A stretch of 26,467 bases of DNA, taken from UHGV virus genome UHGV-0118441. One strand, given 5' to 3'. The stretch is from a virus. Both the position numbers and the translations under genes were made by a program. The notes below the pieces were generated by a model that had not been told where the DNA came from, ran no database searches, and saw nothing but the letters and a program-made list of their open reading frames with translations. This document shows positions 691 to 16,928 of the stretch, one piece after another. Each line of letters starts with the position of its first letter. Position 1 is the first letter of the stretch.

Positions 691-1743
691 TTACGGGGTA
701 ATGCCAACCGCTGCCGCCACTTTGTCGCCACTTGGCAGCGTTGCCAGAGGATTGAAACGGAGCGCCGTTTCCAGATGATCCGGTGCCAGATGTGCGTAAC
801 GCATAGTCATTTTTATATCGTGGTGTCCGAGAATTTTTTGTAAGGCCAGAATGTTTCCACCCGACATCATGAAGTGCGCCGCAAACGTATGGCGCAGAAC
901 GTGTGTGAGTTGACCGCGAGGGAGCACGATAGACGTTTTTTCCATCACGGATAAAAATTGAAAATAGCAGTCTGTGAAGAAATTGAACCCATCAAGCGCC
1001 ATGATCTCTTCGTAAAGCTCTTTACTGATAGGGATGCTTCTGTTTTTCTTCCCCTTCGTTCTTACAAAGGTAATTCGGTATTTGGTCACCTGTGAACGAG
1101 TAAGATTTACGGCTTCTCGCCAGCGTGCGCCTGTGCTTAAGCATATCTTAACTACCAGTGCCAGAATTGGGTCCTGACGTTTGCAATCAGCCAGTAATTC
1201 AACAATCTGCTCATGGGTAAGCCATGCCATCTCTTTTTCTGCGATGGTGAATTTTCGCATGTTCTCCAGTGGGTTCGGATACGACCATTCGCCCAGGCGG
1301 GATAGTTCGCTAAAAACACTACTTAGATAGCTTTGCTCCAGGTTAATGGTGACCGGGCTTGCTCCTTTCTTCCATTTCTCGCTGAAGTAGATCTCACCTG
1401 TCAGGCGTTTATCTCGATAGTGGGCAAACATTTTAGAGGTTAGATCAGTTGCAAGGGGATTGCCCAGAGCGTCAACCATCAGCAGCAATTTGTCATAGAC
1501 ATGCTGCCCAGCAGTCAGTGATTTACCATGTAGTTTGAACCATAGCTCAACCACGTCTTTCAGTGTTCGACGATCCACTGATTCACCTAGCCAGGGCTTT
1601 GCTTCGGTTTCTTCCATCGTGTGACGCTCAAAAGCCAGTGCTTCGCCTTTGGTGGCGAATTGTTTACGCACACGACGCCCACTACGTCCGGCGGGGTAAC
1701 ATTCGCAAAGCCATTTTCCTGTGGTGAGTTTTCGTACAGCCAT
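691..1743 (-). CDS. int: Tyrosine integrase (P2/186 Int family)
   Basis: ORF 691..1821; C-terminal tyrosine-recombinase signature (HVLRHTFAAHF ... LGHHDIKMTMRYAHL). The first ATG with sensible context is at 1743 (MAVRKLTTGKW), 350 aa. Confidence 0.9.
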   Translation of the reverse strand: MAVRKLTTGKWLCECYPAGRSGRRVRKQFATKGEALAFERHTMEETEAKPWLGESVDRRTLKDVVELWFKLHGKSLTAGQHVYDKLLLMVDALGNPLATDLTSKMFAHYRDKRLTGEIYFSEKWKKGASPVTINLEQSYLSSVFSELSRLGEWSYPNPLENMRKFTIAEKEMAWLTHEQIVELLADCKRQDPILALVVKICLSTGARWREAVNLTRSQVTKYRITFVRTKGKKNRSIPISKELYEEIMALDGFNFFTDCYFQFLSVMEKTSIVLPRGQLTHVLRHTFAAHFMMSGGNILALQKILGHHDIKMTMRYAHLAPDHLETALRFNPLATLPSGDKVAAAVGITP

Positions 1744-1931
1744 AAAAAATGCCCTCCAATAGAGAGCATTTTTACTGTATGTATAACCAGTGTCAATGTA
1801 TGAAATCCTGCGACCATACATCTCACTGAAGCCATAATGAAGTAGGCTATTCTTTTTGCTATGTGATCATGTAACTTTTGCGGTTAACCTGTGGCTCATT
1901 TTTATTTTAGGCGCAGATATAAAAGCAAAAG

Positions 1932-4411: not shown

Positions 4412-4638
4412 TGGCTGATGCAATGGATCTCGTACAGCAGCGCGTTGAAGAAGAACGCCAACGCCATATCCGTGCTGCCCGTGCCAAAACGCCGGGCGTG
4501 TCCCGCGTGCTTTGCATTGAGTGTGAAGCGCCAATTCCGCCAGCACGCCGCCGTGCCATTCCGGGTGTGCAGCTTTGCATTACCTGTCAGGAAATCGCAG
4601 AGCTGAAAGGCAAACATTACAACGGAGGTGCTGTATGA
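4411..4638 (+). CDS. TraR/DksA-family C4 zinc-finger protein (75 aa)
   Basis: CIECEAPIPPARRRAIPGVQLCITC: four Cys in the C-x2-C-x17-C-x2-C spacing characteristic of TraR/DksA zinc fingers. AGGAG RBS. Confidence 0.7.
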   Translation: MADAMDLVQQRVEEERQRHIRAARAKTPGVSRVLCIECEAPIPPARRRAIPGVQLCITCQEIAELKGKHYNGGAV

Positions 4639-5492
4639 GCACCATCCTGAAATGGGCGGGAAATAAAACTGCCATAATGTCCGAACTAAAAAAACATCTT
4701 CCTGCTGGCCCGCGACTGGTTGAACCTTTCGCGGGTTCCTGTGCTGTGATGATGGAGACGGATTATCCCAGCTATCTGGTTGCGGATATTAATCCTGATT
4801 TAATCAACCTCTATAAAAAGGTTGCCGCTGATTGTGAATCGTTTATATCTCGCGCCAGAGTTTTATTTGAGATCGCAAACAGGGAGGTGGCTTATTACAA
4901 CATAAGGCAGGAGTTTAATTACTCAACTGAAATTACTGATTTCATGAAAGCGGTATATTTCCTGTATCTCAATCGTCACGGTTACCGTGGTTTATGTCGC
5001 TATAACAAGAGCGGGCATTTCAACATTCCCTACGGTAATTATAAAAATCCGTATTTCCCTGAAAAAGAAATTCGCGCATTTGCAGAAAAGGCCCAGCGAG
5101 CAACGTTTATCTGCGCCAGCTTTGATGAAACGCTGGCGATGTTGAAGGCGGGGGATGTGGTGTATTGCGATCCGCCGTATGACGGTACGTTTTCCGGCTA
5201 TCACACTGACGGCTTCACTGAAGATGACCAGTATCACCTGGCATCTGTTCTTGAACATCGGTCATCAGAAGGACATCCGGTCATTGTTTCTAACAGTGAC
5301 ACATCCCTGATCCGTTCGCTGTATCGCAATTTTACTCACCACTACATCAAGGCAAAACGCAGCATCGGTGTGGCAGCTGGCGAGGGTAAATCAGCAACAG
5401 AAATCATTGCTGTTTCCGGGCCGCGCTGCTGGGTGGGATTTGATTATTCGCGTGGCGTGGATAGTTCTGCCGTGTACGGAGTACGTGCATGA
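4635..5492 (+). CDS. Dam-type (D12 class) N6-adenine DNA methyltransferase
   Basis: ORF 4575..5492; ATG at 4635 with a GGAGGTG RBS ([12 protein letters not shown]...). Cofactor-binding motif FAGSCAV and catalytic DPPY ([10 protein letters not shown]). Start and stop both overlap neighbours as ATGA. Confidence 0.85.
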
Positions 5493-7903
5493 GTCATGCC
5501 GATATGAACAACTGCTGCGGCTTTAACGAAGCTGCCGCATCGTTCTCATGGAACAGCTCGAAAAAGGCCATTAACCCTTATCTGGACCCGGTGGAAGTTG
5601 CGCCGGTTTCTACGCTTTCAAACCTGATCACTCTGTACGCTGCCGATAACGAGCAGGAACAGCTGCGCCGTGAGGCGCTGAGTGATCAGGTCTGGGAGCG
5701 TTATTTCTTTAATGAATCCCGTGATCCTGTCCAGCGCGAAATGGAACAGGATAAGCTCATTAGTCGGGCAAAGCTGGCGCATGAGCAGCAGCGTTTTAAT
5801 CCGGATATGGTCATTCTGGCGGACGTCAACGCCCAGCCTTCCCATATCAGCAAGCCGCTGATGCAACGTATTGAATACTTCAGCAGCCTGGGCAGGCCAA
5901 AGGCTTATTCCCGCTATTTACGTGAGACGATTAAGCCATGTCTGGAACGACTGGAGCATGTACGCGACAGTCAGCTATCTGCATCTTTTCGCTTTATGGC
6001 AAGCCATGAAGGGCTGGACGGCCTGCTGATCCTGCCTGAAATGAGTCAGGATCAGGTGAAACGCCTGTCCACCCTGGTAGCTGCGCATATGAGTATGTGC
6101 CTTGATGCCGCTTGTGGCGATTTGTATGCCACCGATGACGTTAAGCCAGAAGAAATCCGCAATACATGGGAAAGGGTGGCAGCGGAAACCCTGCGTCTGG
6201 ATGTCATCCCGCCTGCGTTTGAGCAACTCCGTCGGAAAAGAAACCGCCGTAAACCCGTGCCCTATGAACTCATTCCGGGTTCGCTGGCGCGTATGTTGTG
6301 CGCCGACTGGTGGTATCGGAAATTATGGAAGATGCGTTGCGAATGGCGGGAAGAGCAGTTGCGTGCTGTCTGCCTTGTCAGCAAAAAAGCATCTCCCTAT
6401 GTCAGCTATGAAGCCGTGTTGCATAAACGTGAGCAGCGCCGTAAGTCGCTGGAGTTTTTCCGTTCTCATGAACTGGTGAACGAAGACGGCGACACGCTAG
6501 ACATGGAGGATGTGGTAAACGCCAGCAGCAGCAACCCTGCGCATCGCCGCAATGAGATGATGGCCTGTGTTAAAGGTCTGGAGCTTATCGCGGAAATGCG
6601 CGGTGACTGCGCCGTTTTCTACACCATCACCTGTCCGTCACGTTTCCATTCCACGCTAAATAACGGCAGGCCCAACCCGACCTGGACAAATGCGACGGTA
6701 AGACAAAGCAGCGATTATCTGGTCGGTATGTTTGCTGCATTTCGTAAGGCGATGCACAAAGCCGGGTTGCGCTGGTATGGCGTGCGGGTGGCTGAGCCGC
6801 ATCACGACGGCACAGTTCACTGGCACCTGTTGTGTTTCATGCGCAAAAAAGACCGCCGCGCCATTACAGCATTGTTGCGTAAGTTTGCTATCCGTGAAGA
6901 CCGCGAGGAGCTGGGCAATAACACGGGGCCGCGCTTTAAGTCTGAGCTGATTAACCCGCGCAAAGGAACGCCGACAAGCTACATAGCGAAATACATCAGT
7001 AAGAACATTGACGGGCGTGGTCTGGCTGGCGAGATCAGCAAGGAAACGGGTAAATCTCTGCGTGATAACGCTGAATACGTGAATGCCTGGGCGTCTTTGC
7101 ATCGTGTTCAGCAATTCCGCTTCTTTGGCATTCCGGGGCGTCAGGCTTACCGTGAACTGCGATTGCTGGCTGGTCAGGCGGTAAGGCAAAAGGGGGACAA
7201 AAAAGCAGGTGCGCCGGTACTGGATAACCCGCGCCTTGATGCCATCCTGGCTGCTGCTGATGCTGGTTGTTTTGCCACCTACATCATGAAGCAGGGCGGC
7301 GTACTGGTTCCCCGTAAATATCACCTCATCAGAACCGCTTATGAAATCAACGAAGAGCCGACCGCCTATGGCGATCACGGCATTCGTATTTATGGCATCT
7401 GGTCACCCATTGCAGAGGGCAAGATCTGCACTCATGCAGTGAAGTGGAAAATGGTTCGTAAAGCCGTTGACGTTCAGGAGGCGGCAGCCGACCAGGGCGC
7501 TTGCGCCCCTTGGACTCGTGGCAATAACTGTCCCCTTGCTGAAAATTTGAACCAACAGGAGAAAGATAAATCAGCTGATGGAGACACCAGAACGGACATT
7601 ACCCGCATGGATGACAAGGAGTTGCACGATTACCTGCACAGTATGAGCAAAAAAGAGCGCCGGGAACTGGCAGCAAGGTTACGCCAGGTGAAGCCGAAAA
7701 GGCGTAAAGACTACAAACAGCGAATTACAGATCATCAGCATCAGCAGCTCGTCTATGAACTGAAGTCCAGAGGATTTGATGGCAGCGAGAAAGAGGTCGA
7801 TTTACTCCTTCGCGGTGGCAGTATTCCGTCAGGAGCAGGCCTGCGTATTTTCTATCGGAACCAGCGTTTGCAGGAAGATGATAAGTGGCGGAACCTGTAT
7901 TAA
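5489..7903 (+). CDS. A: Replication initiation protein A (P2 gpA-family rolling-circle endonuclease), 804 aa
   Basis: Size and position; HUH-like metal-binding motif (VHWHLLCF) and paired active-site tyrosines (YIAKYISK) as in P2/186 A proteins. Confidence 0.9.
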
Positions 7904-7995
7904 TTACGCAGGTTAACAATTCGTGCTCTTAATAATACCAGACATATCAGGCTGATGAACGTAAAAAAACGTTTTACATCAGTAAGATTATTATA

Positions 7996-8056: not shown

Positions 8057-8245
8057 ATGCAGGACTATTTTTTGGAGTCTTTGAAGCTCCAGCGCATTGA
8101 TTTTTTTCTTAAGCTTGTAGCGGCTAGTGAGTGTAGTGATGAAGAGAAAGGGCTGGCTCTGCAGTGGGTTTCTGAACTGACAGATGAACTCATGGCAAAA
8201 ATCAGAAGCCACGAATACAACCGCTCAATGGATGTCATCAGCTGA
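8057..8245 (+). CDS. Small SOS-controlled protein (62 aa); possible Tum-like antirepressor by position
   Basis: ORF 7955..8245; ATG at 8057 with an AGGAGG RBS, immediately downstream of the LexA box. No homology recognised; the antirepressor idea is by analogy with the 186 LexA-controlled tum operon. Confidence 0.45.
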   Translation: MQDYFLESLKLQRIDFFLKLVAASECSDEEKGLALQWVSELTDELMAKIRSHEYNRSMDVIS

Positions 8246-8255
8246 GGTGACTTTT

Positions 8256-8489
8256 ATGCGCATTGAAATAATGATCGATAAAGAGCAGAAGATTAGCCAG
8301 TCTACCCTGGACGCCCTTGAATCCGAGCTTTACCGCAATCTGCGCCCCCTGTATCCCAAAACGGTAATTCGCATTCGCAAAGGTAGCTCTAACGGTGTGG
8401 AACTAACCGGACTGCAACTGGATGAAGAAAGAAAACAAGTGATGAAAATTATGCAGAAGGTGTGGGAGGACGACAGCTGGCTGCATTAA
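8256..8489 (+). CDS. dinI: DinI-family protein (77 aa)
   Basis: ORF 8184..8489; ATG at 8256 with a GAGGTG RBS. MRIEIMIDKEQ...VMKIMQKVWEDDSWLH matches the DinI N-terminal MRIEV motif and acidic W-rich C-terminal helix. Confidence 0.8.
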   Translation: MRIEIMIDKEQKISQSTLDALESELYRNLRPLYPKTVIRIRKGSSNGVELTGLQLDEERKQVMKIMQKVWEDDSWLH

Positions 8490-8956: not shown

Positions 8957-9538
8957 ATGAGCGAAAGGAAAAGAATTGAAGATCAGTATCTTCTCTATCA
9001 TTTAACATGTATGGATAATCTACCTAGTATTTTAGATACAGGATTAAGATCTCGTGCATCAGTAAAAGGTGAGTTTGTTGATGTGGCCGACGGTGAAATA
9101 ATAACAGGTCGCGAAGCATTAAATTTGCAAACAATGGTTCCTTTTCATTTCTTTACTAAGAATCCATTTGATGGAAGAGTCCTGAAAGATCATAAGGAAA
9201 AATCATTTTGTATTATTTCGGTTTGTCGGGCATTTGCCAAAGAAAATGGTTGGAAAGTTATCCCTAAACATCCATTATCCACCAGTTCTTTTATAGACCT
9301 CTTAGATTATGAACAAGGAATGGCCCAAATTGACTGGGAGCTAATGAATATAAGGGATTATAAAAATGCAGAATGCAAATCTGTATGTATGGCTGAGTGT
9401 TTATCAAGTGTAACGGTCGAGCCGAAAAATTTCCATTGCATCTTTGTCAAAAATGATAACGAAAAAAAATATGTTGAAGGGTTGATAAAACAACAAGGAT
9501 TAAGTATATTGATAACGATCAACACTTATATGTTCTAA
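8957..9538 (+). CDS. darT: DarT (DUF4433) ssDNA ADP-ribosyltransferase toxin, 193 aa
   Basis: N-terminal LYHLTCMDNLPSIL, central VPFHFF and C-terminal DWELMNIRDY...MAECL segments match the DarT family as I recall it (Thermus DarT IYHITHIDNL..IL, PFYF, QAEFLV with catalytic Glu). Followed 4 nt later by a macrodomain gene. Confidence 0.75.
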   Translation: MSERKRIEDQYLLYHLTCMDNLPSILDTGLRSRASVKGEFVDVADGEIITGREALNLQTMVPFHFFTKNPFDGRVLKDHKEKSFCIISVCRAFAKENGWKVIPKHPLSTSSFIDLLDYEQGMAQIDWELMNIRDYKNAECKSVCMAECLSSVTVEPKNFHCIFVKNDNEKKYVEGLIKQQGLSILITINTYMF

Positions 9539-9542
9539 TTCT

Positions 9543-10514
9543 ATGATTAAGTATGCAAGCGGAAATCTTCTAAACTCTACATCGCAAGCTCTTGTGAATG
9601 CTGTAAACTGCCAAGGAGTCATGGGAAAGGGTATTGCTTTGGCTTTTAAAGAAACTTTTCCCTATAATTTCGAAGTTTATAAGAGAGCATGCGCCACTGG
9701 TACAATGAAAATTGGACAGGTTTTAATTGTAGAGGAAAAGGGAAAAATAATTGTAAACTTTCCCACTAAAGATAGTTGGAGAAAAAAATCAACATATGAT
9801 TTTATCTCGCAAGGCCTTGAATCTTTAGCAAAAATTATAGATGAAAAAAAAATTACATCAATATCAATACCACCTTTAGGCTGTGGTAATGGGGGCCTCG
9901 ATTGGAATAAGGTTGAGGCTCTTATTTTAAAAACTTTTCAAAATTTAGATAATGTTGATGTGGTAATTTATCCGCCTGCAACTAACAATCAACTTTCAAA
10001 AAATAAAAATGTTATTAATGCTAAGCATCTTTTGGTTCACTACGCCTATGGAAAATTAAAAGTTAAGCAAAAATATTCCCTTTATACAGTTTTTTATATT
10101 TGCGAATGTATTGAGAAAGCAAATCTTTTTTTATTCGATTTTAAACATGGTCGGCCATACTCTTCTGAGTTAGAAAATATTATGAAGGATATAGCAAACC
10201 TTAAAGTTGAGTTGCAAGGAGATTTTGATGCTTTTATTGAAGATTATATTAATACTCATCAATCCAAAGAGTTACAAACCGAGTTTGGTAAACTAATCTC
10301 AACTTTAAATCCAAGTATAAGTTTGCTCAATGCTCTTAAAAATAAGATTGATTATACAGATAGCGTACATGTGATCACGAGAATTGCTAAAGAAAAAGAT
10401 CATGGCTTGCATATTGACAATTTCAAAGAATATGAAAATATTGTGCAGCATTTAATTAAAAATGGATTGGTAATCGAAGATATTTTTAACGAACTAAAAA
10501 TAAAGGGAAGTTAG
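9543..10514 (+). CDS. darG: DarG antitoxin, N-terminal TARG1-like macrodomain (ADP-ribosyl hydrolase), 323 aa
   Basis: N-terminus GNLL...ALVNAVNCQGVMGKGIALAF and later PPLGCGNGGLDW are hallmark macrodomain motifs of DarG/TARG1. Translationally coupled to darT. Confidence 0.8.
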   Translation: MIKYASGNLLNSTSQALVNAVNCQGVMGKGIALAFKETFPYNFEVYKRACATGTMKIGQVLIVEEKGKIIVNFPTKDSWRKKSTYDFISQGLESLAKIIDEKKITSISIPPLGCGNGGLDWNKVEALILKTFQNLDNVDVVIYPPATNNQLSKNKNVINAKHLLVHYAYGKLKVKQKYSLYTVFYICECIEKANLFLFDFKHGRPYSSELENIMKDIANLKVELQGDFDAFIEDYINTHQSKELQTEFGKLISTLNPSISLLNALKNKIDYTDSVHVITRIAKEKDHGLHIDNFKEYENIVQHLIKNGLVIEDIFNELKIKGS

Positions 10515-11066
10515 TAGCGCTATTTTCAATTTTTTTGCTGAAATTGCGCATGCACACTCTCACGCATTATAGATGCGGCGTTAATCCCGCCAGGAGTGTT
10601 GTTTAATAAATTGAACTATTTCTGCATTGAAGGATCAACTTACGCATTCGCTGACAACGCAGGCACTCTCCTGGCTAAGCAGAAATTCAGAGTAACCAAC
10701 TGGCACTTTTACAACAATTTTCTTATCAGTTGCGGCTCCATGACTTTCTGGTGGGATAACAAAGCAATTAAGGCGTGGTATTGTAAGTATCCCGCATAAT
10801 CATGCTAGTAACATTTGTCCCCCATGTAACCTAATTAAGGCAACTTCCGCTCTTCGCTCACAGTGAACCTCCATGTTTGTAAACCCGTATATTTCGTTTT
10901 TTAAGTGGTCATTCAGATACGGATTTTCACTTCTCTTGGCTGTGCATGACTATGCTGCATGAAATTGCATGATCGTTTGAGGATCGTTTTTGCTGAGGCC
11001 CCCCAGAACTGGCGGGCTTTCGCTTATGTCATGCAGGTGCATGAAAATCACTGCATAAAGCGGGCA

Positions 11067-11085
11067 GGCGTGGCGGGGATACGAG
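11067..11085. other. Candidate cos cohesive-end sequence (GGCGTGGCGGGGATACGAG), P2/186-type
   Basis: First 13 nt match my recollection of the P2/186 19-nt cohesive end (GGCG[A/T]GGCGGGGAAAGCA[C/T]), followed by CGCGCGCT as at the P2 left end. Position between gene A and portal Q fits P2 synteny. From memory, not a database match. Confidence 0.55.
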
Positions 11086-11164
11086 CGCGCGCTAACTAAA
11101 AAGCTAGAGAATCTGTGAATTTTTCAATAGTATTATTCTTAGTTAACTAAAGGAGAATCTTATC

Positions 11165-12229
11165 ATGGCAGAAAACGGACCTCGTGAAGACTTGGCGAAG
11201 CTGGTGTCCCATAAACTATTGGAAAGATTTAAGTGGAAGCAACACGGTCCGACCGATCATGATTTTCCGTGTACTGAACAAGAATTACACAAGCCAGCGG
11301 AAAAAACGCAAGACCACACACATCCAGTTGATATTGTCTTTCATTATAAAGATCCTTACTTAAATAAAATTGTTTATCTAAATACTGATTTGAAAAGTTA
11401 TTCAAAAGGGTCTTTAAATTCTAAAATGGTTGAAAATGCTTTAGATTCCTTAGCAAAAACTATTCATTGTGCGCAGAATAGTCAGGTATGGAAAAATCGC
11501 TATGAGACAACCATGTCTAAAAGTGAAGTACGAGGGTTACTTTTTGTATATAATCATGATAATGACTATAAGCATAATTTCTATGACTATTTTTATCCTC
11601 CTAAACCCAAAAAAGGGAAAAGACCTGCGGCAGTTAATTTAGACAGAGTAAATGTATCTGAAAATCAGCAAATACATATAATTGAGCCACGAACTATTAG
11701 TTATCTTATGTCTGTTGTTGCTGATATGAACGAAATGATTGCGGAAAATAAATTCCCGCGTGATGATTATGGGTTCTATTATCCTCAATTAATACTTCAT
11801 AAGGTTGTGACTGCAGAAGAATATCTTCCAGCTACAGTGGAAACTCTAACATCCCCCTACATGATAATTAAACATGGTCCAGTAATAGAATATAATAGAG
11901 CTAAAAAGGAGGACGAGCTGGTTTATCCTGAAGGGTTTATTGTTTATTACAACCGCTCCGGTAAAACAGACTTAGAGTTTAATTATTTATTAGATACTCT
12001 AGCTAACTACCAGATATTAAACTCAAAAAATAATATTAGAATTAGAGTAGCATGTATTGATAAAAGTGAGCACATACGGACTAATTTTATAAAAGCTATA
12101 GAAAAATTTTCATATCAGTGGGGATATGATGAATCTATGAAGGAAAAATTATTATCTATTGAGCTATATATTGTGCCTCTATCTCGAGAGCAATATTTAA
12201 CAGAAGAAAGATCATGGGATGTTAAATAA
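11165..12229 (+). CDS. Unknown protein, 354 aa, first gene of AT-rich cargo operon; possible PD-(D/E)xK-like nuclease motif
   Basis: ATG with an AAGGAGA RBS 8 nt upstream; AT-rich codon usage. HPVD-IVFH ... KIVYLNTDLK is compatible with a PD-x(n)-D-x-K signature. No other motif recognised. Confidence 0.6.
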   Translation: MAENGPREDLAKLVSHKLLERFKWKQHGPTDHDFPCTEQELHKPAEKTQDHTHPVDIVFHYKDPYLNKIVYLNTDLKSYSKGSLNSKMVENALDSLAKTIHCAQNSQVWKNRYETTMSKSEVRGLLFVYNHDNDYKHNFYDYFYPPKPKKGKRPAAVNLDRVNVSENQQIHIIEPRTISYLMSVVADMNEMIAENKFPRDDYGFYYPQLILHKVVTAEEYLPATVETLTSPYMIIKHGPVIEYNRAKKEDELVYPEGFIVYYNRSGKTDLEFNYLLDTLANYQILNSKNNIRIRVACIDKSEHIRTNFIKAIEKFSYQWGYDESMKEKLLSIELYIVPLSREQYLTEERSWDVK

Positions 12230-13305
12230 TGAGTGAAATACACAGTGTTACAGACAAAGCTTTATACGAGGCTTTATGCCAATCACGTGTCACTGATAAT
12301 GATATGGTGGAATTGTTTTTATCCCGTGGAATTTTGGTGTCAAAAAAAACTGAGCGTAAGCAACTAGCAAAAAATTTCTCAAAGCTCACTCATGATTATT
12401 ATTTGCATCAGAAAATTTCTGGAATATTTGGAGGTTTTTTAAGGCGAGAGAAATCTACGGCTATAGTTATTAAGAATAATATTGATAAGCCACTACTTGT
12501 TAAGGCTGCTAATAAGCTTAAAGATCAGCTGGAAAGCGAAGATGATATATGTCATGTAATCAGTGATAAAGATTCTATTAAAATTAGCATTACATACTTA
12601 TCAACCAATTTTGGTAAAAGTGAATTTAACCAAGTAGAGAAGAAAACTGCTGTTTTTGAAATCGAGTCCCTTTCGGATGGTTTTTCAATTCGTAGGCCTG
12701 ATAGTGAACAAGCTGAGATTTATAATAAAAAACTACTAAGTATTATCGAACAGGTTATACAAAAGGAAAAAGATATAGAAGCAACGACTTTAGATACAGA
12801 AGAAATCAACCTCGCGAACATCGATGACGCAGATAAAAGAACAGAATTTTTTAAGCGGCTCATCAATGGGTTGGATGGATATGTTTTAGATGATGTTACG
12901 GATGTTTATATCTACCATCCTAAACCTGCTGTCATGGAGGAGGAAGATGGGGATTCTGAAACAGGAATACATATTAGCAAAGCATCTTTGAAAGGAGAGG
13001 GGGTGCTTAAATCTGAAGAGTTGAATTCTTTGTATGATAGAGGGTTTTATATTTGGAAAATAAGATGGAGAATAAAGGATAAATCTACTACTCCAGATCT
13101 TTATGATTTTGAAGCTCAGTTTAGTGATCCTTTAGAGTTTAAGAGCTTTTCATATATTTCTAGAGGGGTGAGGAAATATAAAGGTGCCGGAGAATATAAT
13201 AAAAATCCGAGCCAATTACCGGATGATGAAGAATATCATTTTAAAAGACTTATTGAAAAAACGGCGCGTTCAATTATAATGGATATTAATAAAGAGTATG
13301 AGTGA
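12229..13305 (+). CDS. Unknown protein, 358 aa, second gene of cargo operon
   Basis: ATG overlaps the stop of the previous gene (TAATG). Highly charged, Lys/Glu/Asp-rich; no Walker A, HEPN, HTH or other motif recognised. Confidence 0.6.
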   Translation: MSEIHSVTDKALYEALCQSRVTDNDMVELFLSRGILVSKKTERKQLAKNFSKLTHDYYLHQKISGIFGGFLRREKSTAIVIKNNIDKPLLVKAANKLKDQLESEDDICHVISDKDSIKISITYLSTNFGKSEFNQVEKKTAVFEIESLSDGFSIRRPDSEQAEIYNKKLLSIIEQVIQKEKDIEATTLDTEEINLANIDDADKRTEFFKRLINGLDGYVLDDVTDVYIYHPKPAVMEEEDGDSETGIHISKASLKGEGVLKSEELNSLYDRGFYIWKIRWRIKDKSTTPDLYDFEAQFSDPLEFKSFSYISRGVRKYKGAGEYNKNPSQLPDDEEYHFKRLIEKTARSIIMDINKEYE

Positions 13306-13313
13306 GATAACAA

Positions 13314-14018
13314 ATGAAAACACTGGATAAAATTAAGTGGAGCAGAGTGAAGTTATCAATAACCTTCTCTGAACTAATTGATTATTTTAAACGTAATTCT
13401 TATGATGAAAGTAAAGGTTATGGTTATACTTTTGTGAATTTTACTGAACATGAAGTTTCCGCTTCTTATGTTGAAAAGTCATTGCGTACAGAAGTTATTG
13501 TATCGCCCGCGGGAGATGAGATAGAACAAGATTTTTTAGAGTATGAAACCATAAAATTTGCATTAAAGCCCGTATCTAAAAATCTCTCTTTATTGGCTAT
13601 TTTTAATCCCCCTAAATCTATAAAGAAATTGACGGATAGACTTAGTGTAGATTTCAATTATAGGGTTGGATTTGGTTCAATTACCTTAAATTTAAAGGAG
13701 TATATAAATTATCTAAGTTTACAGCATTCAATAAGTCTATTACATATTGATAAAATTAAAGTTAGCAATGTTGTGTTAAATGGGAACTCCAAGGCCTCGG
13801 TTGAGATAACTTCCACAAAAAATGCATTGTTAGAGCTAGAAAGTATTTTTACTAACAAAAAATATAATATAGATAAAGTTAGGTTGCATTGTTTGATTTA
13901 CGGGGAACCTTCTTTTGTTGAGCTTTCAAAAAGCGCTTTTATTAATTCAGATTCTAATCATCTGGATTTTTACTCCGACTTCCTCATTCAGCAATTATCT
14001 AATGATGAATTTCGTTAA
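13314..14018 (+). CDS. Unknown protein, 234 aa, third gene of cargo operon
   Basis: ATG 8 nt after the previous stop; same strand and AT-rich composition. No recognisable motif. Confidence 0.55.
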   Translation: MKTLDKIKWSRVKLSITFSELIDYFKRNSYDESKGYGYTFVNFTEHEVSASYVEKSLRTEVIVSPAGDEIEQDFLEYETIKFALKPVSKNLSLLAIFNPPKSIKKLTDRLSVDFNYRVGFGSITLNLKEYINYLSLQHSISLLHIDKIKVSNVVLNGNSKASVEITSTKNALLELESIFTNKKYNIDKVRLHCLIYGEPSFVELSKSAFINSDSNHLDFYSDFLIQQLSNDEFR

Positions 14019-14020
14019 TA

Positions 14021-14040
14021 AAGGCGGGTATGCCCGCCTT
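14021..14040. terminator. GC-rich hairpin (AAGGCGGG-tatg-CCCGCCTT) between the cargo operon and the 3' end of portal gene Q
   Basis: 8-bp perfect stem, 4-nt loop, 2 nt after the gene-3 stop; T-rich only on the minus strand, so it may terminate the Q-P transcript or act in both directions. Confidence 0.45.
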
Positions 14041-14124
14041 GCTGGCGATATGTTGAGCTACGCTCAATTGACTTTTCTATTTATATGGTTATTAATTGAT
14101 TTGTTTATAATATCTGAATTTTTA

Positions 14125-15162
14125 TTAAGTTGCCTTTTCAAGCTTGTAAGGGATAAAACGTATAATCTCGTGGCCGAGCCAGCAGTTAAGCTCCATTATT
14201 AGCTTCTGTAGTGGCAATAATTCATTCCTTACAAATACATTACTTGCCTTCTCCACATCCCCAAACCCCCCAACATTATTCGGCATAATCCCCATCATTT
14301 GTGGCGGCACACGATGTGCCGCCATCATGTCATCCCGGCTCACGTTCTTGATGTTCAGAAATTCATCCTTTGCCGCGACTTCTGACAACGGGATAATCTG
14401 AAGACCATCCTTTTTGCCGTTAGGTGAGTACATAAACAGGTTGCGGAAGTTGCCTGGACCTTTGGCGCTTTTCATTGCGTTGCGGAGGTTGTTCACATCC
14501 TCCTGGTTCTGCGCAGCATCGGTCATGTACATGATGAAGCCAGCATGACTGCCGTTAATGTAATACTTTCGGCGGAACAGCGTGGCGGACTCATTGAGCA
14601 GGGCGGACGGAATGGCAGAAAGATAGCCGGGCAGGCCGTAGATCTCCTGGTTAATGTCCGGTTCCATCAGATGAAAAATGCTGCCTTTCGTGAACTGATA
14701 CGGCTGGGTTGTCATACCGTATTGCACAAACCAGTAGGTATCCAGGTCTAACCCGCGTCGGGTGTATTTTGCCAGAGCAGGCTCAAGGGCGATAACTTCA
14801 CCGAAGCGGTTCGTGCGTTTCTCCAGGTAGGCGTTACCAAATACCAGATAGTCCTGCACAAAACGTGAAAAAGCCTGCTGGCTGAGCAGCGGGTGGGGGA
14901 TGTAGGTACTGGTCAGAATGTTGCATTTCACCGCAATTGGTGAACTGTGATGCACGGCGGCGCGGAAGGTGCGCGCCAGTCCGTCAAAGCTTACTGGCGG
15001 CTCATACCAGCGATCTGTCTGTACGCATTCCACATAGTCCAGTAGTTCGCGGCGGTCCAGAACAGGAACGGGATCACCGAAGCTGAATGCTTCGGCTGTA
15101 GTTTGACTTTTATGCTGGATCTGGTTCGTCGACGCAGCGCGGTTCTTCTTACTCTTTCCCAT
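14125..15162 (-). CDS. Q: Portal protein (P2 gpQ family)
   Basis: ORF 14125..15165; about 345 aa from the ATG at 15162. Size, synteny (downstream of and overlapping the large terminase gene as ATGA) and orientation relative to cos match P2 Q. Confidence 0.85.
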   Translation of the reverse strand: MGKSKKNRAASTNQIQHKSQTTAEAFSFGDPVPVLDRRELLDYVECVQTDRWYEPPVSFDGLARTFRAAVHHSSPIAVKCNILTSTYIPHPLLSQQAFSRFVQDYLVFGNAYLEKRTNRFGEVIALEPALAKYTRRGLDLDTYWFVQYGMTTQPYQFTKGSIFHLMEPDINQEIYGLPGYLSAIPSALLNESATLFRRKYYINGSHAGFIMYMTDAAQNQEDVNNLRNAMKSAKGPGNFRNLFMYSPNGKKDGLQIIPLSEVAAKDEFLNIKNVSRDDMMAAHRVPPQMMGIMPNNVGGFGDVEKASNVFVRNELLPLQKLIMELNCWLGHEIIRFIPYKLEKAT

Positions 15163-16928
15163 CAAAAAATCTCCACAATATTACTGGTATTGGCGGACTC
15201 GCCCTGCAGTGGTTCGTTAAACAGTGCGTGCATTGTTGCCCAGGCCAGATCGGCGTGGCTGGCTTCTTCGCTGCGGCTGGCTTCATAGGTCGGGCGGTTG
15301 CCACTGGCGGTGGTTGCGCGACGGATTGCCATGAATGACTGCGCAATGTCGGTGTGCCCGGCGTCAAACTCCAGACGGCGGTGGCTGATAATGTCGTAGG
15401 CCTTGAGTACCAGGGCGTTTTTAACATTGGGGTTATAGACAAACTCCCGGACGGCTGGAAAGAACGCTTTCACGTTCTCGTAAACCCCGTGACCGACGCC
15501 GGTCGAGTCAATACCGATGTACGTCACGTTGTACTGTTCGGTCAGTTTTTTGATGGCATCAGCCTGGGCGCGGAAGTCCATCCCGCGCCACTGGTGACGT
15601 TCAAGAATGCGGAACTTGCCGCCCGGTACGGCTGGCGGTGCCACCACCACGCATCCGGCGCTGTCGCCGTTCTGCGTACCTTTTGCCGGGTCATAACCAA
15701 TCCATACTTCGCGCCAGCCAAACGGGCGCAGCGCCAGTGCATGGAAGTCGGTCCAGACTTCCCAGCTGTCCACCATGCACGCCTGCAGCTCGCTGAGCGG
15801 GAACACGGACGCGAGATCGTCCACGAACTCACACATCAGCAGGTTCTGGTATTCGTCCGGGCTGTACTCCATGCGCAACTGGTCGAGGTCGAACAGGTTA
15901 CAGCCGCCGTGCACCGCATCTTCCACGGTGACTATCTGGCGGTATTGCCCGTCTGCGCACAGCAGGCCGGGGGCCAGATTGTTATGGGACAGGTCGATGT
16001 CCACCTTGTCGGCTTTGTTGCGCCCACGGTTGAACAGCGCACCGGACCAGAACGGATAAGCACTGTGGGTCAGGCTGGATGGCGTGGAAAAATAAGTTTG
16101 TCGCCATTTTTTGTGAATAGCCATACCGGAAGCCACTTTGCGCAGCTCCTGAAATTTCGGTATCCAGAAATATTCATCCAGATACAGGTTGCCGTGATAA
16201 CTCTGGGCCGTGCGGGCATTGGTGCCGAGGAAGTAAAGTGTGGCCCCGTTAGGAAGCACCATCGGATCGCCTTTCAGCTCCACCTCCACTTCTTTGGCGA
16301 AGTCGATGATGTACTGCTTAAAGACGTGAGCCTGTGCCTTACTGGCAGAAAGGAAAATCTGGTTACGTCCGGTAAGCAGGGCGTCAATCAGGGCTTCACG
16401 GGCAAAGTAAAAGGTCGCACCGATCTGGCGTGACTTCAGCAGGTTGCGGATGCGGTTGGTTTTTCCGGCTTCCCACCAGTGGCGCTGGTAGTTGAACATG
16501 GAGGAATGGAAGATTTCTTCCAGCTTCTCAATCTGTTCATCGGTGAAAACGTTCTTTTCCGGCTGACGACGCGGGCCTTTGTTGCGGTTGGCGACGTTAG
16601 GGTTTAAGTCGGCTTCGTTGCCGCCATTGTTAAACTTGCCGATCCGCGCGTGGCGCTCCGACTGGCGCGCCAGCAGATCAATTTCTTTGAAATCTTTCCC
16701 TTCTTTGTGCTCCTTCATAATGAGCTGGCAGTAACGTGCGGCGGTGGTGAGCTGCATCTGATCCAGCGGCCCGTAGTCACCCCACTTGTCGCGTTTTTTC
16801 CAGCTGTGAACGGTTGCAACTTTCTCGCCCAGCATTTCAGCAATGCGGGCGACGCGGTATCCCTGAAAGTACAGCAGCATGGCCTGCCGACGGGGATCGA
16901 GATCTGCGGGTGTCAGTGTGGTGTTCAT
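15162..16928 (-). CDS. P: Terminase large (ATPase) subunit (P2 gpP family), 588 aa
   Basis: Size and divergent arrangement from the capsid operon as in P2 P/O. The antisense 359-aa ORF on the plus strand is treated as spurious. Confidence 0.85.
   Translation of the reverse strand: MNTTLTPADLDPRRQAMLLYFQGYRVARIAEMLGEKVATVHSWKKRDKWGDYGPLDQMQLTTAARYCQLIMKEHKEGKDFKEIDLLARQSERHARIGKFNNGGNEADLNPNVANRNKGPRRQPEKNVFTDEQIEKLEEIFHSSMFNYQRHWWEAGKTNRIRNLLKSRQIGATFYFAREALIDALLTGRNQIFLSASKAQAHVFKQYIIDFAKEVEVELKGDPMVLPNGATLYFLGTNARTAQSYHGNLYLDEYFWIPKFQELRKVASGMAIHKKWRQTYFSTPSSLTHSAYPFWSGALFNRGRNKADKVDIDLSHNNLAPGLLCADGQYRQIVTVEDAVHGGCNLFDLDQLRMEYSPDEYQNLLMCEFVDDLASVFPLSELQACMVDSWEVWTDFHALALRPFGWREVWIGYDPAKGTQNGDSAGCVVVAPPAVPGGKFRILERHQWRGMDFRAQADAIKKLTEQYNVTYIGIDSTGVGHGVYENVKAFFPAVREFVYNPNVKNALVLKAYDIISHRRLEFDAGHTDIAQSFMAIRRATTASGNRPTYEASRSEEASHADLAWATMHALFNEPLQGESANTSNIVEIF

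Follow-up and report, generated by a model that had tools for sequence, protein, structure and literature searches.

The window considered here, namely the whole stretch of 26,467 nucleotides of the UHGV virus genome UHGV-0118441, corresponds to a P2-like prophage that carries integrase, repressor-like, portal and terminase genes, with capsid, lysis and tail genes located beyond the terminase (Table 1). Between the gpA replication endonuclease gene and the portal gene the GC content drops from about 0.55 to 0.31-0.37, and this stretch is the cos-proximal diversity hotspot described for P2-like phages (Rousset 2022, PMC9122126). The low-GC cargo found there comprises DarT, DarG and an operon of three consecutive genes at 11165-14018, referred to here as Hp1, Hp2 and Hp3. 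Since a complete DarT/DarG pair lies directly upstream of this operon, which is identified below as a 3HP system, two defence systems are housed in a single prophage hotspot. No match emerged when the window was scanned for Rfam families and tRNAs. Related prophages (L001) hold, between the methylase gene and gpA, an extra gene with a PAPS-reductase domain that is absent from the window.

Table 1. Positions of the features discussed, numbered along the window.
Feature	Position	Strand	Remarks
Integrase	691-1821	-	
DNA adenine methylase (Dam-like)	4575-5492	+	overlaps gpA start
gpA replication endonuclease	5489-7903	+	
DinI-like gene	8184-8489		
DarT	8957-9538	+	Pfam E 5e-22; PADLOC 1.7e-36
DarG	9543-10514	+	macro domain; PADLOC E 2.8e-80
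67-aa GTG-start ORF	10596-10799	+	between DarG and cos; no family match
Cos-like cohesive-end 19-mer GGCGTGGCGGGGATACGAG	11067-11085	+	P2 packaging site; 79 nt upstream of Hp1 start
Hp1 gene	11165-12229	+	354-aa ORF; predicted N-terminal PD-(D/E)xK nuclease domain, then C-terminal alpha/beta domain
Nuclease core of Hp1, predicted	11177-11584	+	approximate; residues about 5-140
H53-P54-V55-D56, first motif half	11321-11332	+	putative counterpart of GAPS4a 'HGxD'
D75-L76-K77, (D/E)xK motif half	11387-11395	+	conserved in homologs
Hp2 gene	12229-13305	+	358 aa; N-terminal helical domain, then RdgC/CENP-N-like double alpha/beta domain; presumed DNA-binding scaffold or sensor
Hp3 gene	13314-14018	+	234 aa; third subunit
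Terminator-like hairpin, possible operon end	14052-14068	+	consensus scan match just past Hp3 stop; weak
Portal (Q)	14125-15165	-	
Terminase	15162-16928	-	

The position of the operon relative to the packaging site was then considered. The 19-mer GGCGTGGCGGGGATACGAG lines up with cosR/cosL as annotated in phage P2 (AF063097), within a longer match in which 47 of 62 positions are identical across window positions 11035-11096, and conservation of the ~150 bp around cos extends to 82 P2-like phage records and over 1200 E. coli genomes. An interpretation of the 10800-11100 segment as an IS remnant was discarded, since its match is to the P2 cos, even though the annotation of E. coli strain S40 places an IS5 fragment nearby. 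Because phage P2 holds only a terminator between cos and its portal gene Q, the 3HP cassette fills a further cargo slot, this one on the Q side, and it would lie at the very end of the packaged linear genome. When searched as a whole, 10800-14100 had no full-length match among 5426 complete E. coli genomes. Five E. coli genomes share 10942-14100, a segment with cos and 3HP, but not the flank towards DarTG, and others, strain S40 among them, share DarTG and cos and then continue into a different, unrelated three-gene cargo. This distribution suggests two cargo slots that are shuffled by recombination at cos. The S40 three-gene cargo beside DarTG was also considered as a 3HP variant and rejected, BLASTP finding no similarity. 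Regarding the short ORF between DarG and cos, it is probably a remnant rather than a true gene, because its S40 counterpart is a truncated IS5/IS1182 transposase pseudogene.

The first-pass annotation had described the three-gene operon as unknown, a description that no longer holds, since the three adjacent co-directional genes match, in order, the PADLOC models Hp1 (E 3.2e-62), Hp2 (E 1.5e-40) and Hp3 (E 3.1e-14) of the catalogued 3HP (Rst_3HP) anti-phage system; they also match three PHROGs of unassigned function, Hp1 falling in phrog_7059 (E 1e-126). The genes are tightly packed, with the Hp1 stop and Hp2 start codons overlapping in TAATG at 12227-12231 and the Hp3 start only 8 nt past the Hp2 stop. 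Promoter and terminator scans were uninformative, giving no more matches than expected from shuffled sequence. Of 81 loci from Gamma- and Betaproteobacteria of many genera, 70 retain the order Hp1-Hp2-Hp3, and so do the most divergent plasmid copies (27% identity). The 11 exceptions include five short contigs, of which three stop inside the operon or shortly past it and two show nothing recognisable as a downstream gene; in the remaining six the third gene is either missing or too divergent to be detected.

The PADLOC Hp1, Hp2 and Hp3 models derive from the 'hp + hp + hp' system of pFR109, from E. coli E1114, and 3HP is treated as a three-gene unit by both PADLOC and DefenseFinder. That system was cloned from a P2 hotspot and protects against P1, the only one among eight phages tested for which protection was observed, and its proteins were reported to have 'no clear predicted domain' (Rousset 2022, PMC9122126); in a 2024 survey Rst_3HP was still unclassifiable. 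The window shares with E1114 the same three genes, in the same order and in the same niche, the cos-proximal hotspot of a P2-like prophage, although in the window the cassette is found between cos and the portal gene (Q), and in E1114 on the gpA side, where it also reads away from cos. Since Hp1, Hp2 and Hp3 are, respectively, 37, 29 and 25% identical to the validated E1114 proteins, the window operon is regarded as a divergent 3HP subtype. The validated E1114 Hp1 contains HPSD...TDLKSY, the same HPxD...DLKSY motif as the window Hp1, and the window operon, a homolog of this P1-active allele, may likewise have anti-phage activity.

Within Hp1, the residues previously proposed as a PD-(D/E)xK core were located as described, residues 54-77 reading P54-V55-D56-IVFHYKDPYLNKIVYLN-T74-D75-L76-K77, with codon 54 starting at 11324 and codon 77 ending at 11395; the opposite strand of the gene contains no overlapping ORF of at least 60 aa. 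The bare pattern D-x(10-30)-[DE]-x-K is uninformative in this protein, being no more frequent than expected by chance: it occurs four times, against a mean of 5.3 per shuffle, and 97% of 2000 shuffled Hp1 sequences hold at least one match. Such figures favor a reading in which Hp1 lacks nuclease function and owes its D...DxK spacing to coincidence alone, being an AT-rich, Asp/Lys-rich protein, and the lack of local Pfam-A and PDB sequence matches points in the same direction. Nonetheless, this reading is effectively refuted by residue conservation together with the predicted fold, and we regard it as having hardly any likelihood. Thus, the motif is considered non-random because it is conserved family-wide, not because of the pattern itself.

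Conservation was evaluated on sets of increasing diversity. D56...D75-x-K77 is the sole one among the four pattern matches whose residues are conserved throughout the family; these three residues, together with H53, are invariant in 118 of 118 full-length database homologs and in all 81 sequences of the genome set (genome loci plus the window, covering many genera). In 139 diverse representatives, taken from mutually diverse clusters with 24-45% identity to the window Hp1, H53, D56 and K77 are present in every sequence, and position 75 is Asp in 138 and Glu in one, an exchange that corresponds to the classic (D/E)xK tolerance. Altogether, more than 330 homologs, with identities down to 24%, sustain the invariance of a motif that can be written family-wide as H-P-x-D ... 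(D/E)-[LFV]-K-S-[YF], and the family is sizeable, with 500 representatives of 50%-identity clusters (E <= 1e-3) in a search of 1.8 billion representative proteins. D63 was also evaluated as the catalytic aspartate and rejected: it is invariant in close relatives only and is located at the distal hairpin turn. Because its conservation falls to 91 of 139 in the diverse set, D56 is the better candidate for the first catalytic aspartate. No conserved glutamate was seen within helix 1 of Hp1, the sole invariant one being E3, in the low-confidence N-terminal tail.

The AlphaFold2 model of Hp1 (pLDDT 91, pTM 0.89, from an 89-sequence alignment) displays in its N-terminal 140 residues a helix (5-20), a hairpin of strands 58-63 and 68-79, helices spanning 86-113 and a strand at 120-130. 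This is consistent with the alpha-beta-beta-beta-alpha-beta core fold of the PD-(D/E)xK superfamily, the modelled elements following the expected alpha-beta-beta-alpha-beta order. D56 directly precedes strand 58-63, and D75-L-K77 is inside strand 68-79, near its end. An aspartate placed before one strand with (D/E)xK in the next is the canonical arrangement of PD...(D/E)xK enzymes, and Hp1 follows it, with the conserved Asp where the second core strand begins and D-x-K in the third. D56 and D75-x-K77 would face each other across the hairpin, as deduced from its topology. The structure prediction suggested as a check by the first-pass annotation thus gave a positive outcome; the restriction-endonuclease-like core anticipated there is supported by the modelled fold, by residue invariance and by independent annotation, and residues 53-77 are proposed as a PD-(D/E)xK active site with predicted catalytic activity. 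PDB sequence and profile searches, run with full-length Hp1 and with the N-terminal domain separately, returned no solved nuclease, so the nuclease assignment is built on the fold and the motif. Scanning the three proteins against the local Pfam-A copy likewise gave no meaningful match, and even homologs named for PF26115 score nothing there; since this family is evidently absent from that Pfam-A copy, the empty scan is not evidence against a nuclease domain.

Public databases already contain part of this assignment. Precomputed Pfam PF26115 is found on all 120 Hp1 homologs among the matches listed, and several UniRef names of such homologs read 'GAPS4 PD-(D/E)XK nuclease domain-containing protein'. 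The operon is found at 99.4-99.6% DNA identity in five complete E. coli genomes; two of these, a 99.6%-identical copy among them, have Hp1 named 'PD-(D/E)XK nuclease domain-containing protein' by PGAP/RefSeq. The nuclease label is thus already known from RefSeq and UniProt and the operon is already called by defence-finder tools, so that genome annotation gains little from the present analysis. New here are the kinship of two 3HP subunits with GAPS4, a residue-level definition of the active site (H53, D56, D75 and K77) and the prediction of an RdgC-like fold for Hp2.

The relationship with GAPS4 was evaluated by means of the NCBIfam profiles. GapS4a (NF047933) matches Hp1 with 40.7 bits and E 1.7e-10, aligning residues 15-211 to positions 16-198 of a 302-position profile, a score well under the family cut-off of 270 bits. 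Among 89 Hp1 homologs, 70 are matched by the same profile, the best at E 3e-13 and all with scores far below that cut-off. The GapS4b profile does not match the window Hp2, and within the Hp2 alignment A2 it matches one of 69 members. It gives collinear matches to divergent Hp2 relatives, including the E1114 protein, at 21-36.5 bits against a cut-off of 300, with E values of 2.4e-9 (residues 12-273 to profile positions 1-270 of 355), 2.2e-5 (14-314 to 8-329) and 9.4e-5. Searches aimed at retrieving GAPS4a and GAPS4b sequences recovered only 3HP-type proteins, the best 150 matches of the representative search all being Hp1-like and the plasmid tblastn searches with Hp1 and a divergent Hp2 reaching 3HP-like loci only; because no GAPS4 sequence was returned, the link between both systems is drawn from the NCBIfam profile matches. 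By these profiles, Hp1 and Hp2 are distant homologs of GAPS4a and GAPS4b that fall outside the families as NCBI curates them.

GAPS4a carries a non-canonical HGxD-SxK motif, and its D59A/D49A mutants lose defence (Mahata, bioRxiv 10.1101/2025.09.07.674715). Compared at the level of motif strings, H53-P-V-D56...D75-L-K77 of Hp1 has the H, D and K in common with it, with G replaced by P and S by D; H53/D56 would accordingly correspond, residue for residue, to the HGxD of GAPS4a. GAPS4 forms an a2b2 complex with a ring-like GAPS4b dimer (the ring being predicted), and acts as a non-selective DNase on phage and host DNA that is triggered by DNA breaks or linear DNA (bioRxiv 10.1101/2025.09.07.674715). 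Likenesses between both systems include (i) a putatively equivalent N-terminal H-x-x-D...x-K nuclease motif, at the same protein position, (ii) the nearly end-to-end match of Hp2 relatives to GapS4b, and (iii) the predicted RdgC-like fold of Hp2, which fits the 'ring-like' GAPS4b dimer. On the contrary, 3HP comprises three genes, whereas GAPS4 has two or a fusion and no third gene has been described for the two-gene form; the canonical D-x-K of Hp1, with P after the His, differs from the S-x-K of GAPS4a, with G after the His; and trigger by DNA breaks, a2b2 stoichiometry and DNase activity have been demonstrated for GAPS4 only. The two GAPS4 papers (bioRxiv 10.1101/2023.03.28.534373 and 10.1101/2025.09.07.674715) name neither 3HP nor RdgC, and neither the 3HP-GAPS4 link nor an RdgC-like second subunit is stated in the searchable literature.

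Shedu (SduA) and Hachiman (HamA) are further defence systems with PD-(D/E)xK effectors answering to DNA ends or damage. Hp1 shows no sequence homology to either of them and differs in having an extra C-terminal domain and in being paired with an RdgC-like protein, whereas the Hachiman partner HamB is a helicase and Shedu is partnerless.

The Hp2 model (pLDDT 87.5) begins with a four-helix domain and continues with two alpha/beta domains that conform to the RdgC two-domain fold. RdgC, lambda RexA and the CENP-L/N counterparts Iml3/Chl4 share one common DNA-binding fold, RdgC being a ring-shaped dimer with a basic pore (PMC11077077). Hp2 has no sequence similarity to these proteins and differs from them in the extra four-helix domain, and its Foldseek TM-scores against RdgC-type folds are low, about 0.25, which reflects different domain orientations. 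A ring dimer and DNA binding are presumed for Hp2 by analogy with RdgC and with the predicted GAPS4b ring. PDB searches with Hp2 and Hp3 gave no match, and no enzymatic fold or motif was found in either protein.

Hp3 is the most variable member of the operon. It has no relatives in Pfam, NCBIfam or the PDB, a word-index protein search returned three homologs only, and its alignment shows a mean column identity of 27% with no invariant residue. A paralogous origin from Hp2 or from the C-terminal domain of Hp1 was considered and rejected, hhalign probabilities being about 1% or lower. Conservation decreases from Hp1 to Hp2 and much more steeply to Hp3, a gradient that fits a conserved effector (Hp1), a scaffold or sensor (Hp2) and a fast-adapting regulatory or specificity subunit (Hp3). 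This is the most likely role for Hp3, and it constitutes the least certain step of the proposal.

The lack of a recognisable domain in Hp3 also agrees with the operon being a plain two-component system that works exactly as GAPS4 does, with Hp3 as an unrelated passenger. GapS4a and GapS4b have their homologs in Hp1 and Hp2, and the match of an Hp2 relative takes in almost the full length of the GapS4b profile (positions 8-329 of 355), so nothing would seem to be missing. Nonetheless, a Hp3 homolog follows Hp2 in 70 of 81 loci, spread over many genera and with frames overlapping or nearly abutting, which departs from a two-gene or fused GAPS4 architecture; a gene of matching size follows even in the most divergent plasmid copies; separate PADLOC models exist for all three proteins; and GapS4a and GapS4b scores are far below the family cut-offs. 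A passenger role for Hp3 is accordingly quite improbable, and it is retained here as a subunit of the system.

The same set of data bears on whether Hp1 is the effector. Some PD-(D/E)xK enzymes act on RNA, and Hp1 could have the fold and yet be an RNase or a non-catalytic DNA-binding or scaffold module, with killing or defence due to Hp2, Hp3 or a host factor. Considering that (i) the three catalytic positions are strictly invariant, with the only tolerated exchange being D to E at position 75, as in an active-site signature, (ii) the nearest characterised relative, GAPS4, breaks down DNA in vivo and depends on the motif Asp, and (iii) Hp2 and Hp3 are free of enzymatic folds or motifs, this possibility is judged unlikely. 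The best explanation is instead that the H-P-x-D...D-x-K stretch at residues 53-77 is a PD-(D/E)xK active site and that Hp1 is the first gene of a three-gene operon, a divergent 3HP subtype beside cos that probably follows a GAPS4-like mechanism, an explanation that we hold with considerable confidence. The in silico support for it comes from the Hp1 fold, the position and invariance of the motif, the conservation of the operon as an obligate trio of genes, the distant homology to GAPS4a and GAPS4b, and the RdgC-like fold of Hp2.

By analogy with GAPS4, from which complex stoichiometry, Hp2 ring and trigger are all borrowed, the system might operate as follows. A Hp2 dimer would engage DNA as an RdgC-like ring or clamp, and Hp1 would dock on it and supply metal-dependent DNA cleavage. 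Phage-derived DNA ends or damage arising during infection would act as the trigger, and activation would lead to degradation of phage DNA, and probably of host DNA, resulting in abortive infection.

A predicted effector activity is in this way assigned to 3HP, a system catalogued with no clear domain in 2022 and unclassifiable in 2024, and its connection to the experimentally characterised GAPS4 yields testable predictions, namely loss of defence in D56A or K77A variants, DNA degradation upon infection, sensitisation of cells to DNA-breaking agents, and a complex between Hp1 and Hp2. More tentatively, as a view that we entertain without favoring it, 3HP and GAPS4 might represent the two branches of a single ancient family of defence DNases able to sense DNA ends or breaks, in which an RdgC-fold ring (Hp2/GAPS4b) would thread onto or clamp free DNA and license the docked PD-(D/E)xK nuclease (Hp1/GAPS4a), while the fast-evolving Hp3 would tune the trigger or the restraint between self and non-self.

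Finally, a divergent 3HP-like trio was detected on the Citrobacter freundii plasmid NZ_CP070546.1 (L082), at 4977-7970, encoding proteins of 363, 415 and 215 aa, all three annotated as hypothetical. Its Hp1 is 27% identical to that of the window and keeps the motif intact as HPTD...TDLKSY. Similar trios are also present on about 15 related Enterobacter and Klebsiella plasmids, the carriers, that of Citrobacter included, being IncF-type clinical plasmids.
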